Of a stretch of DNA of 4,612 nucleotides, positions 1,228 to 4,612 are shown in pieces. Positions within the stretch are counted from its first letter, which is position 1. The number at the start of each line of letters is the position of its first letter. The stretch is from a virus. Lineage: Duplodnaviria > Heunggongvirae > Uroviricota > Caudoviricetes. The translations under genes and the position numbers were made by a program. The stretch lies in IMG/VR virus record IMGVR_UViG_2693429700_000015; one strand, written 5' to 3'. The notes under the pieces were generated by a model. It made no database searches and was not told where the DNA came from. It worked only from the letters and a program-made list of their open reading frames with translations.

Positions 1228-1364
1228 AACGTAATGGTTTAAACATGTCGCTAAAGTGGTTGTAAGTTAGCCTCCGAAGGATTGCTGATAGCTTTGTTAT
1301 AGTATTAAATGACATTTGACATAGTTGGATACTTAGCTGCGGCTATCAAGATGGAGGTATGTTT

Positions 1365-1808
1365 ATGCTCACTTGTTTTGATGTCGCCGACTACTTCTTG
1401 GCGCATTGCGATGAAGAAAGTGGCGACATTATCTCTAACCTAAAAATTCAGAAGTTGACGTATTATGCCCAAGGGTTTTCTCTGGTTCTTCTGGGTAAGC
1501 CGCTATTTAATGAGAAAATTGAAGCCTGGATGCATGGGCCAGTAGTTCCTGAATTGTATCGTAAATATAGGGACTGTGGTAACGGCGCTTTACCTGCGCC
1601 AGAAAACTTTGACGCTAAAAAATTCAGTGAAGATGAAATTGAATTGCTGGATGAGGTGTATAAAGTTTATGGTCAGTTTTCTGCCTGGAAACTGCGCAAT
1701 ATGACTCACGAAGAGCAGCCATGGAAAGATGCTTACATTGAGGGTGCGGTTAGCCAAGAAATCACACTTGATTCTATGAAAGGTTTTTTCAAAACGTTAA
1801 TTAACTGA
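1365..1808 (+). CDS. Panacea-domain (DUF4065; GepA/SocA-like) protein, putative antitoxin of a PanA/PanT-type module
   Basis: The segment KIQKLTYYAQGFSLVLLGKPLFNEKIEAWMHGPVVPELY matches the conserved core of DUF4065/Panacea proteins as I remember it (KLQKL-Y-AQ ... PLF-E-AW-HGPV). Start chosen at ATG 1365 (GGAGG at 1353-1357, 7-nt spacer) rather than the track ATG at 1359, which is only 1 nt after the Shine-Dalgarno. A TTGACA hexamer lies at 1316-1321 inside a tandem TGACAT-T-TGACAT, about 45 bp upstream. Confidence 0.75.
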   Translation: MLTCFDVADYFLAHCDEESGDIISNLKIQKLTYYAQGFSLVLLGKPLFNEKIEAWMHGPVVPELYRKYRDCGNGALPAPENFDAKKFSEDEIELLDEVYKVYGQFSAWKLRNMTHEEQPWKDAYIEGAVSQEITLDSMKGFFKTLIN

Positions 1809-1813
1809 CGTGT

Positions 1814-2236
1814 ATGTCTAGAGTTAAGGGAAGAATAAAACAGAGGGATAAAGAGAGCTCTGCTACTGTTGGCCTCTCTATCCATCACGAATCTCATGAT
1901 GTAGACAAAAGTCCGCCTGTATTTTCTCTTAGATACCTACAAAAGGGGTATTGCCTAGATTGCTGCCAAAAGCATGAAAAGGCAGCATTTGCAGATAGGC
2001 TGTTCAGGTTAAGTCAGATGTCATGGGATGAGATACGAAAATCTGATAAACACGGGCTTGGGACGGAAAAAATTGCCAGAAACGCGATAAAGGCTCCGAT
2101 TCCTAAGCATGTTACTCAAGATGTGGATTTCATTGCGTTCAGATTTTGCTCTAAGGCACCTATGGTTGGTTATAAGATAGGAGCCACTTTTTATGTCTTA
2201 TGGCTCGACAGGGAGTTCAAGCTATACAAGCACTAA
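1814..2236 (+). CDS. hypothetical protein; candidate toxin partner of the upstream Panacea-domain protein (family not recognised)
   Basis: 140-aa ORF starting 5 nt after the Panacea gene stop (operon arrangement) and ending at a strong terminator. No Shine-Dalgarno at the 1814 ATG, so translation would need coupling; an alternative internal start at ATG 2018 (AGGT 8 nt upstream) would give 73 aa. Basic N-terminus, Cys cluster (CLDCCQKH), C-terminus GYKIGATFYVLWLDREFKLYKH. No family recognised from memory. Confidence 0.5.
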   Translation: MSRVKGRIKQRDKESSATVGLSIHHESHDVDKSPPVFSLRYLQKGYCLDCCQKHEKAAFADRLFRLSQMSWDEIRKSDKHGLGTEKIARNAIKAPIPKHVTQDVDFIAFRFCSKAPMVGYKIGATFYVLWLDREFKLYKH

Positions 2237-2810: not shown

Positions 2811-2994
2811 GGTGGGATGCTAGGTCTCTATCGTTAAAATCAAGGCTGCTAATCATTTCATTGTAAATGGCGTTTTTATCTTCCATTGGCAGTCTTGAGT
2901 AAACCAGACACAGAGCATATTTCAGGGAGTTTAGCTCTTTCTCTAGCTCTTCCTTGCTTGACGTTTTTGACTTAATAAACTGTTTTTTATTCAT
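2785..2994 (-). CDS. hypothetical protein (69 aa) translationally coupled to mnt
   Basis: Its start ATG (2994-2992) overlaps the mnt stop in an ATGA arrangement, with AAGGA about 6 nt upstream inside the mnt 3' end. Hydrophilic, no transmembrane segment, family not recognised. Its 3' end overlaps the convergent 2625..2810 ORF by 26 nt. Confidence 0.5.
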   Translation of the reverse strand: MNKKQFIKSKTSSKEELEKELNSLKYALCLVYSRLPMEDKNAIYNEMISSLDFNDRDLASHLNSFRVPE

Positions 2995-3239
2995 TTTGCA
3001 TCCTTACCATACATGGTTTTCAGTGTTTCAAGCAGCGCCTCTTTGAATTTGTCAGCTTCTTGCTGAGCAAATGACTCAACTGACTTTGGCGACCTATCTT
3101 CATCAATCGCGGCTTGCAAAATCATGACGATCTCGGAGTTAACAGAGCGACCATTTTTTGATGCTCTGACAGCAAGAGCCTCGCGCAAAGATTCAGGGAT
3201 TCTTACCGTAGTTGGAGAAATTGACACACCCTTTGCCAT
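2991..3239 (-). CDS. mnt: Mnt-like ribbon-helix-helix repressor (immI region)
   Basis: 82 aa. TTVRIPESLREALAVRASKNGRSVNSEIVMILQAAI is an Arc/MetJ-type RHH motif (beta-strand, G-R-S-x-N-S-E helix). Length and C-terminal helix (FKEALLETLKTMYGK) parallel phage P22 Mnt (83 aa, C-terminus ...VFDTLKDLYKK) as I recall it. Transcribed divergently from the arc-ant pair, as in P22 immI. Confidence 0.8.
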   Translation of the reverse strand: MAKGVSISPTTVRIPESLREALAVRASKNGRSVNSEIVMILQAAIDEDRSPKSVESFAQQEADKFKEALLETLKTMYGKDAK

Positions 3240-3259
3240 AGCACACCTTTGGTATTCAA

Positions 3260-3271
3260 TTTGATATCAAA
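3260..3271. promoter_or_regulatory. 12-bp perfect palindrome TTTGATATCAAA in the mnt/arc divergent control region; candidate operator
   Basis: Perfect dyad symmetry, located 21 bp upstream of the mnt start codon in the 114-bp region separating two RHH repressor genes. RHH dimers and tetramers bind symmetric operators. Confidence 0.4.
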
Positions 3272-3288
3272 GTGTATGCAAAAGAAAT

Positions 3289-3317
3289 TTGACTAGATAT
3301 ACTCACTTTGCTATCTT
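3289..3317 (+). promoter_or_regulatory. putative sigma70 promoter for arc-ant (Pant-like)
   Basis: TTGACT (3289-3294), 17-bp spacer, TATCTT (3312-3317), about 35 bp upstream of the arc Shine-Dalgarno GGAGGG (3344-3349). The spacer contains CTAGATATACTCAC, a possible repressor binding region. Hexamer match is moderate. Confidence 0.35.
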
Positions 3318-3353
3318 TTGTATTCGAAAAGAGTCGTTTGTGCGGAGGGTAAC

Positions 3354-3506
3354 ATGGAGAAAGAAATAAGTAAGATTTTGGTAAGGATGCCGCAGTCGTT
3401 AAAGGACGCTATCGGTAGCAGGGCAAAGGAAGAATGCCGGTCGTTTAACTCGGAAGTGATTAAGCGGTTGATAGACAGCCTGAAGAGAGAGGGGATAACG
3501 GTGTGA
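3354..3506 (+). CDS. arc: Arc-like ribbon-helix-helix repressor
   Basis: 50 aa. ILVRMPQSLKDAIGSRAKEECRSFNSEVIKRLIDSLKREG aligns motif-for-motif with P22 Arc (FNLRWPREVLDLVRKVAEENGRSVNSEIYQRVMESFKKEG) as I recall it. Start at ATG 3354 with GGAGGG 4 nt upstream; the track TTG start at 3318 is rejected. Confidence 0.8.
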   Translation: MEKEISKILVRMPQSLKDAIGSRAKEECRSFNSEVIKRLIDSLKREGITV

Positions 3507-3738
3507 TTCGCTTGGATGCAGTAGTCAAAGAGATTGCGATTACCATTTTAAGACCAAATTTTGTTCATGGCGAATCATTTGGCACGAACGAAAAATTGAG
3601 AAGAGAAAGAGTATTCAGTGGCAAGCGCACATTTTCAGAAGTGATGCTTGATGCGGCAAAGAAATCAAAACAGTGAAGCCCCAACTGCGGTAACAGTCAG
3701 GGCTTCGGTTGTCGGTAAATTCGTGGAGAAAAACCAAC

Positions 3739-4533
3739 ATGAATAGTATAGCAATTTTAGAAGCAGTGAACACCTCTTACGTACCATTCAACGGTCAGCA
3801 AATTATCACCGCCATGGCTGCCGGAGTTGCATATGTTGCGATGAAGCCAATCGTTGAAAACCTTGGAATGAGCTGGTCAACGCAGCAAACAAAACTCATG
3901 AAGCAGATTAGCAAATTCAACTGTGTTCATATGAACATGGTTGCCGCTGATGGGAAGCTTCGTAAGCTACTCTGCCTTCCTTTGAAGAAGTTAAATGGAT
4001 GGCTGTTCAGCATCAACCCCGAGAAAGTTCGAGCTGACATCCGCGATAAACTGATTCAGTACCAGGAAGAATGCTTTACTGTACTGCATGACTACTGGAC
4101 AAAGGGAAAGGCAGAAAATGCACGTAAGAAAACATCTGTTGATGACAGGACTCCGCTTCGTGATGCTGTAAATATGCTAGTCAGCAAAAAGCATCTAATG
4201 TACCCAGAAGCTTATGCAATGATTCATCAGCGTTTCAATGTGGAAAGTATTGAAGAGCTTGATGCATCTCAGATACCGCAAGCCGTAGAGTACATCCACA
4301 GGGTAGTGCTTGAAGGTGAGTTCATCGGCAAACAAGAGAAGAAGCCCAACGGGCTTTCCGCAAAAGAAACAGACATCCTTGTATGGCTGTGGGATTATGC
4401 CAACCGCTCACAGGCATTATTCCGCGAACTGTATCCGGCGCTGAAACAAATTCAATCGAACTATTCCGGCAGATGTCATGACTGCGGTTATGAGTTCTCC
4501 CGTATTATCTGTATTAGCTCAGACCTGATCTGA
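3739..4533 (+). CDS. ant: phage antirepressor (P22 Ant-like, N-terminal P22_AR_N-type domain)
   Basis: [21 protein letters not shown]...[12 protein letters not shown]...[27 protein letters not shown]...[16 protein letters not shown] matches the conserved N-terminal domain of P22-type antirepressors as I remember it. It lies downstream of arc in the same orientation, as in immI. Start taken as ATG 3739 (GGAG at 3725-3728) rather than the track TTG at 3709. Confidence 0.75.
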
Positions 4534-4568
4534 CAGTTACCGGTTATTTATACAGGTATCTGTCAGAT
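4528..4568. other. imperfect inverted repeat immediately after ant stop; possible terminator or regulatory hairpin
   Basis: ATCTGACAGTTACC (4528-4541) and GGTATCTGTCAGAT (4555-4568) are reverse complements at 13 of 14 positions, separated by a 13-nt AT-rich spacer. A second small hairpin CAGAT-TAC-ATCTG (4564-4576) follows, and a T-run sits at 4584-4589. The T-run is not directly adjacent to the stem, so terminator function is uncertain. Confidence 0.3.
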
Positions 4569-4612
4569 TACATCTGGCTTAAATTTTTCTCGGCCCAGAT
4601 GCGCTTTCCATC

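Follow-up and report, generated by a model that had tools for sequence, protein, structure and literature searches.

In phage P22, the promoter Pant is repressed by Mnt in lysogens and is shut off by Arc during infection (Susskind, Sauer, McClure, as cited in PMC2629481). The surroundings of these genes form a variable region in P22-like phages: the excerpts of Villafane et al. 2008 (PMC2629481) on which we draw describe an "ant moron" with ten types in sixteen genomes and high genetic flux. The window analyzed here, a stretch of 4,612 nucleotides from IMG/VR virus record IMGVR_UViG_2693429700_000015, is, by its sequence, the immI (mnt-arc-ant) region of a P22-like (Lederbergvirus) prophage. 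Among phage records, Escherichia phage phiv205-1 comes closest, with 96.4% identity across positions 3242-3800, and the window in full was not found in any complete E. coli genome. Its protein-coding immI genes and the promoter-like site between mnt and arc are as follows.

2991..3239, minus strand: mnt-like repressor gene, 82 aa, divergent from arc (Pfam Arc PF03869, 41.8 bits, cut-off 20.4; PHROG 2685, E = 1.1e-31)
3289..3317, plus strand: promoter-like site in the Pant position, TTGACT-17-TATCTT with TG (promoter scan)
3354..3506, plus strand: arc, 50 aa, a variant ending ...DSLKREGITV (Pfam Arc PF03869, 45.8 bits, cut-off 20.4)
3739..4533, plus strand: ant, coding for an antirepressor of 264 aa that is cut short at its C-terminus (Pfam P22_AR_N, 154 bits, and P22_AR_C, 72 bits; matching PHROG)

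The products of both arc and mnt exceed the Pfam cut-off of 20.4 for Arc/Mnt ribbon-helix-helix repressors (PF03869). The mnt-like gene has the same position as mnt of epsilon34, and 3289..3317 corresponds in position to the Pmnt/Pant/arcO features annotated in that phage. Reading by eye located an inverted repeat, AGATA-N12-TATCT, inside 3289..3317, which we infer to be an operator. At the left end of the window (1 to ~147), an IS3-family, IS1203-like element cuts the gene 16 homolog, and an IS481-family element from ~4505 (4505-4612) removes the ant C-terminus; likeness to intact ant stops at 4499. With IS elements at both ends and a truncated ant, the prophage copy in the window is therefore decayed.

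Several other ORFs lie to the left of mnt. A Panacea/SocA-like antitoxin-domain protein is encoded at 1359-1808 (+) (PF13274, 87 bits), and 6 nt after this gene starts another, at 1814-2236 (+), for a 140-aa protein (PHROG 8366) with a weak PADLOC match to NsnC (E = 1.8e-7); the two may be a toxin-antitoxin or defence pair within the "ant moron." The 140-aa gene converges on a 67-aa ORF (2280-2483, −) that has a hydrophobic N-terminal segment and two CxxC motifs, and between them lies a hairpin at 2235-2266 (CCCACC...GGTGGG) with A-/T-runs on both flanks and weak Rfam terminator-like matches. A 129-aa ORF at 601-990 (−; PHROG 2651) has an N-terminal hydrophobic stretch resembling a signal peptide; a gene annotated as a lipoprotein in the O104:H4 prophage is at the equivalent position. 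Finally, a 69-aa ORF (PHROG 16466; 2785-2994, −) overlaps the mnt stop. Where the window has this ORF, phiv205-1, EC.P3 and E. coli MS 110-3 carry a 178-aa ClpP-like gene, and the site downstream of mnt looks like another exchangeable position.

The initial annotation had drawn attention to an arc-ant gap of about 230 bp and had proposed for it an antisense RNA, an extra small protein or an attenuator-like structure. The gap is 232 bp (arc stop 3506, ant start 3739). An antisense RNA is indeed encoded in it, as already known biology: a full-length sar gene (Rfam RF00262) reads from 3738 to 3672 on the minus strand.

3672..3738, minus strand: sar antisense RNA gene, antisense to the ant ribosome-binding site (Rfam RF00262)
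3675..3706, minus strand: sar stem-loop II, an intrinsic terminator with a 14-bp stem and a 4-nt loop, then ACTGTTTTGA on the minus strand (terminator scan; Rfam structure line)
3725..3728, plus strand: ant Shine-Dalgarno sequence GGAG, 10 nt before the ATG (sequence; inside the Rfam sar match, under sar stem-loop I)
3745..3773, minus strand: Psar, the sar promoter, within the first ant codons (identity to the epsilon34 segment annotated as Psar)

The sar match reaches 87.1 bits, where the gathering score is 43 (E = 3.9e-18), and spans model positions 1-68 of 68. It ends one base short of the ant ATG and covers the ant GGAG at 3725-3728, and at the other end its U-tract probably continues to ~3667. 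Both expected hairpins form in the predicted fold of the sar strand, whose energy is −31.1 kcal/mol (z = −5.2; 0 of 200 shuffles equal it). The inverted repeat noted earlier ahead of ant, GAAGCCC (3675-3681) and GGGCTTC (3700-3706), is present and is the outer part of the longer stem of stem-loop II. Upstream of sar, the first 75 nt of ant (3739-3813) are identical to epsilon34 (L004, 1566-1640), where 1572-1600(−) is annotated as "located by similarity with P22 Psar"; the counterpart in the window, 3745-3773(−), was not called by a simple consensus promoter scan. We also detected sar at the same position in six relatives and in CUS-3. The identity of sar and of its hairpin is, in our assessment, virtually certain, and sar and its promoter region are intact in the window. 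Both sar and the terminator hairpin are textbook P22 biology. However, sar fills only the last 67 bp of the spacer and leaves the extra spacer length unexplained.

The remainder of the spacer is taken up by the 57-codon ORF at 3503..3676, which we call c57.

3487..3494, plus strand: GAGAGGGG, a Shine-Dalgarno-like run 8 nt before the GTG, also arc codons K-R-E-G (sequence)
3503..3676, plus strand: c57, a 57-codon GTG-start ORF, a cassette between arc and the sar terminator (ORF list; PHROG 17642)
3503..3519, plus strand: left copy of an imperfect direct repeat, GTGATTCGCTTGGATGC (alignment with relic locus L027)
3641..3654, plus strand: right copy of the imperfect direct repeat, GTGATGCTTGATGC (alignment with relic locus L027)

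The geometry of c57 was described correctly at the outset, as was the amino-acid sequence deduced from it: the GTG at 3503-3505 overlaps the arc stop TGA (3504-3506) as GTGA and opens a 57-codon frame that runs to the TGA at 3674-3676. The Shine-Dalgarno-like run said to lie about 9 nt upstream is also there, at a spacing of 8 nt, but because it encodes the K-R-E-G of arc as well, it is not independent evidence of a ribosome-binding site; it is kept, with minor variants, at the left junction of cassette-bearing loci. The description of the ORF as unannotated has to be withdrawn. It is already a CDS in phiv205-1 (QGF19908.1), whose protein is identical to c57 of the window; it has a RefSeq entry as a hypothetical protein (e.g., WP_000620145.1, from PGAP), and it matches PHROG 17642 over its full length (E = 1.3e-43). 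In O104:H4 genomes, c57 is intact yet uncalled by PGAP.

A comparison of spacer length with P22 and its relatives, as the initial annotation had advised, located the difference precisely. The insert is absent from P22 and epsilon34, and the similarity of these two and ~50 other phages begins exactly at window position 3674. The arc stop of epsilon34 is 6 nt from the hairpin (GCGTAAAGTTGAAGCCCC), and the insert in the window measures 174 nt, which makes the spacer longer by ~170 bp than in P22 and epsilon34. The extra length thus comes from a c57-encoding cassette of 174 nt, inserted with the arc stop on one side and the sar terminator on the other. The G+C content of the insert is 0.39, compared to ~0.43-0.45 in its flanks. 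A search for the insert in other contexts found it in no plasmid and in a single phage record; wherever it was found, it lay between arc and sar. At the relic locus L027, a deletion between the repeat copies has removed positions 3520-3654. What remains is an in-frame relic of 12 codons, VIRLDAAKKSKQ, which occurs in 6 viral contigs among the matches listed. c57 is dispensable, as this one lineage retains only the relic.

We then scanned IMG/VR for the sar terminator sequence, which returned at least 120 contigs, and identified in each the ORF that ends at the hairpin. Of the 120 listed contigs, 111 could be evaluated. The slot was empty in 65, with Arc itself ending at the hairpin, and held a cassette or relic in 45; the one other contig has a ribbon-helix-helix-like ORF at the slot that is maybe an alternative arc. 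The occupants, with the number of contigs among the matches listed, were as follows.

67-aa Cys4 protein: 15 contigs
73-aa ORF: 10 contigs
12-codon relic of c57: 6 contigs
c57: 5 contigs
74-aa Cys-rich protein: 3 contigs
89-aa ORF: 3 contigs
60-aa protein, one copy disrupted: 2 contigs
63-aa Cys4 protein: 1 contig

The slot is therefore occupied in ~40% of the sar-bearing relatives listed, by seven small ORFs that fall into four unrelated sequence groups: c57, the 73-aa ORF, the 89-aa membrane/coiled-coil ORF and the four Cys4 proteins. In BLASTP comparisons among the cassettes, c57 and the 73- and 89-aa ORFs were each unlike all others, and the Cys-rich proteins of 67, 63 and 60 aa were mutually similar, with the 74-aa protein marginal (E ~0.006 to 0.02). 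Phage vB_EcoP-611R6 carries the 73-aa ORF in its slot (PHROG 11805), and phage EC.P3 carries the 89-aa ORF (PHROG 27312), which has a transmembrane and coiled-coil pattern. By its PF06689 score of 43 bits (cut-off 27), the 60-aa cassette encodes a ClpX-type zinc finger, and a link of the Cys4 cassettes to ClpXP is possible. Among the Cys4 cassettes at L042, L022, L116 and L034, one exceeds the Pfam threshold for the ClpX zinc finger, and the others fall below it or have no score. We also observed, among the loci listed, a ClpP-like protease gene downstream of mnt at 12 of 45 cassette or relic loci and at 4 of 62 empty-slot loci.

All intact cassettes share the same junctions. They start at ATGA, a 4-nt overlap with the arc stop; GTGA is found only in the c57 family, the only one to start with GTG where the others have ATG, and the overlap is 8 nt in the Klebsiella allele of c57. 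The stop codon of every intact cassette is the TGA in TGAAGCCCC, located at the foot of the sar hairpin, and the A-run preceding this TGA is the U-tract of the sar terminator on the other strand. At the occupied-slot loci listed, the C-terminus of Arc reads DSL[KRM][KR]EG followed by three residues (in Klebsiella, VVCD). Each insert is one ORF across its whole length, a state that is retained in 0.2-1.2% of shuffles for the other six cassettes and in 5.9% for c57, with a product of ~1e-15. Cassettes occur with at least three arc types and at least three ant types. As they combine freely with these types, the conserved arc 3′ end and the sar terminator behave as recombination joints. That the insert is an exchangeable cassette is, in our view, very likely. 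A literature search found no description of a cassette slot inside the arc-ant operon.

The slot is also occupied in CUS-3, which in the excerpts of PMC2629481 is said to apparently lack arc. The CUS-3 locus (L129, 1298-1766) contains arc (46-aa core, unannotated), a 67-aa Cys4 ORF overlapping the arc stop, and a full sar (84.6 bits), and all three lie inside a feature annotated as "bsq2; boundary sequence." The presence of arc in CUS-3 corrects the published view of its absence.

Database searches placed c57 by itself. Neither HMMER among 1.84 billion representative proteins nor a word-indexed search found homologs beyond near-identical copies; four extra HMMER matches were to repeat proteins, with short matches summed, and were treated as spurious. 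c57 was not found in GTDB species representatives and had no match in Pfam, NCBIfam, PADLOC or the PDB, where the best sequence match, to the RRM of the cold-inducible RNA-binding protein, was at chance level (E = 0.34). c57 also falls outside the ClpX-type C4 zinc fingers (PF06689), as the window allele contains no Cys and has no Pfam match. A BLASTP hit linking c57 to the 63-aa Cys4 cassette (12/29 identities, E = 7e-4) was overruled by an hhalign probability of 0.2%. An AlphaFold2 model of c57 was poor (pLDDT 54) and inadequate for a fold search. On reading the sequence, we saw no slippery heptamer ahead of the arc/c57 overlap that could yield an Arc-c57 frameshift fusion, and a literature search found no paper naming the c57 protein accession.

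The extra small protein proposed for the spacer fits to the extent that the ORF accounts for the spacer length and is best read as a coding cassette, but its translation is unproven. Interruption of the 57-codon frame in close relatives had been named as something that would count against it. c57 is present in 93 of 5426 complete E. coli genomes, and all 93 copies are full length, with the frame intact and located between arc and sar; the frame is likewise intact in a Klebsiella aerogenes prophage, and one lineage has it reduced to the relic. However, the E. coli copies all share at least 97.6% identity, which makes their intactness weak evidence, and the insert could instead be a non-functional leftover of recombination, spacer DNA between arc and sar whose frame is open by chance or through recent ancestry. 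Consistent with a leftover, dN/dS for c57 is ~0.5 (0.28-1.1, up to about 1, on only 4-12 substitutions) and indistinguishable from the out-of-frame control, frame +1 being similar or lower; the 5.9% of dinucleotide shuffles of the insert that stay open in the c57 frame make the open frame only mildly unusual; and the GTG start, the failure to find distant homologs and the low-confidence structure model point the same way, as do the deleted relic and the few database copies that are frameshifted or carry an insertion. A mere leftover would fit poorly with the start and stop geometry that c57 has in common with six other clear-ORF cassettes (joint chance ~1e-15), with a codon-usage score that is highest in the c57 frame (+0.31 bits per codon, versus at most 0.04 in the other five frames), and with the spread of c57 over several arc and ant backgrounds. 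The frame has moreover survived 12 nucleotide substitutions in the Klebsiella allele, which differs at 8 amino acids (86% amino-acid identity). All 12 differences lie outside an invariant 63-nt core at 3540-3602 (codons 13-33, ...TILRPNFVHGESFGTNEKLR...), a distribution of marginal significance. Weighing these observations, we lean toward c57 being translated into a functional protein and regard a non-functional leftover as possible but rather unlikely.

Two other readings of the spacer dispense with a protein or give the hairpin a different role. The insert might act as a second regulatory RNA, or as an antisense promoter against arc, and a weak minus-strand promoter-like site (3573..3545, 9/12 matches) does lie within the invariant 63-nt core. 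Promoter-like sites are nevertheless at shuffle expectation (2 found versus a mean of 1.7), no significant structured RNA was found in the insert on either strand (z = −0.48 and +0.41), Rfam returned nothing in it at E ≤ 1, and the other slot cassettes share no sequence with the c57 insert, all of which make an RNA or promoter role improbable. Still less credible is that the hairpin at 3675-3706 attenuates or terminates the rightward Pant transcript and thereby limits ant, as the attenuator-like structure of the initial annotation would imply. The hairpin is strong, with 14 bp, and stands just upstream of the ant ribosome-binding site, but the plus strand after it reads GGTTGTCGG (onward GGTTGTCGGTAAATTCG) and contains no U-run. 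The U-run 3′ of the hairpin is on the minus strand, the scan calls a terminator on that strand only, and the hairpin matches stem-loop II/terminator of the Rfam sar model base for base; an identical hairpin is present in P22-type loci, where ant is expressed through it. The structure is thus the sar terminator.

We consider it fairly likely that the anatomy described here and the role of c57 as a translated cassette gene expressed from Pant hold together. In such a scheme, c57 would have no promoter of its own and would be transcribed from Pant as arc-c57-ant, with its translation coupled to that of arc, because no promoter was found from arc to c57, whose start codon overlaps the arc stop. 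The protein would then appear solely as a short burst, following infection or the loss of Mnt, alongside Arc and Ant, and would subsequently be shut off by Arc and Mnt. Exchange of cassettes would proceed by homologous recombination, bounded by the conserved arc 3′ end on one side and the sar terminator on the other. Each cassette would preserve the U-tract of the sar terminator and would also still bring a terminating ribosome to the base of the hairpin, as arc does in P22. In the window itself, a decayed prophage, expression of c57 may be irrelevant.

An early burst would argue against a defence gene expressed in the lysogen and would favor an early accessory role. That c57 is an early accessory protein for host takeover or counter-defence, dispensable for immI regulation, is a guess and a doubtful one; modulation of resident prophages would be a further candidate role. 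More speculative still is the proposal that the junction of the arc stop and the sar terminator is a dedicated cassette-exchange site, at which small proteins are loaded for the early, self-limiting antirepressor burst, and that c57 represents a new host-takeover or counter-defence family. If the exchange-site reading were true, the cargo would comprise the orphan c57, a membrane protein and free-standing look-alikes of the ClpX zinc finger, the last of which might interfere with ClpXP.

For the window itself, little is at stake, since its sar is textbook, its ORF is already annotated as hypothetical and its prophage is decayed. The slot is of wider interest as a precisely bounded site in a very well studied operon that holds at least four unrelated groups of small ORFs in ~40% of the listed relatives. 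It yields a list of small phage proteins expected right after infection, the timing of anti-defence and host-takeover factors, and P22 genetics offers a simple system in which these proteins can be tested.

Compared to the immI regions of P22 and epsilon34, the window has the same gene order and orientation, Arc-family repressors and a full-score sar antisense to the ant ribosome-binding site, and its Psar region and ant start are identical to those of epsilon34. It differs in that its arc and mnt alleles have diverged, its operator sequences are different, its ant is truncated by an IS element, and a 174-nt ORF separates arc from sar where P22 and epsilon34 have 6 nt. The "ant moron," as far as the excerpts of PMC2629481 describe it, concerns whole-gene variation around immI, whereas the slot reported here lies inside the arc-ant operon. 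With phage morons in the sense of Hendrix and Juhala, c57 has in common that it is extra DNA between genes that are adjacent in relatives (the slot being empty in 65 of the 111 evaluable relatives listed), of slightly lower G+C content, variable and dispensable. Unlike such morons, c57 is embedded in an operon, overlapping the arc stop with its start codon, and no promoter or terminator of its own was found; the only terminator is that of sar, on the other strand. The product of c57 is the same hypothetical protein as PHROG 17642/WP_000620145.1. Overall, the locus combines known regulation with a new orphan cassette in a known variable region, and the finding is a modest one.
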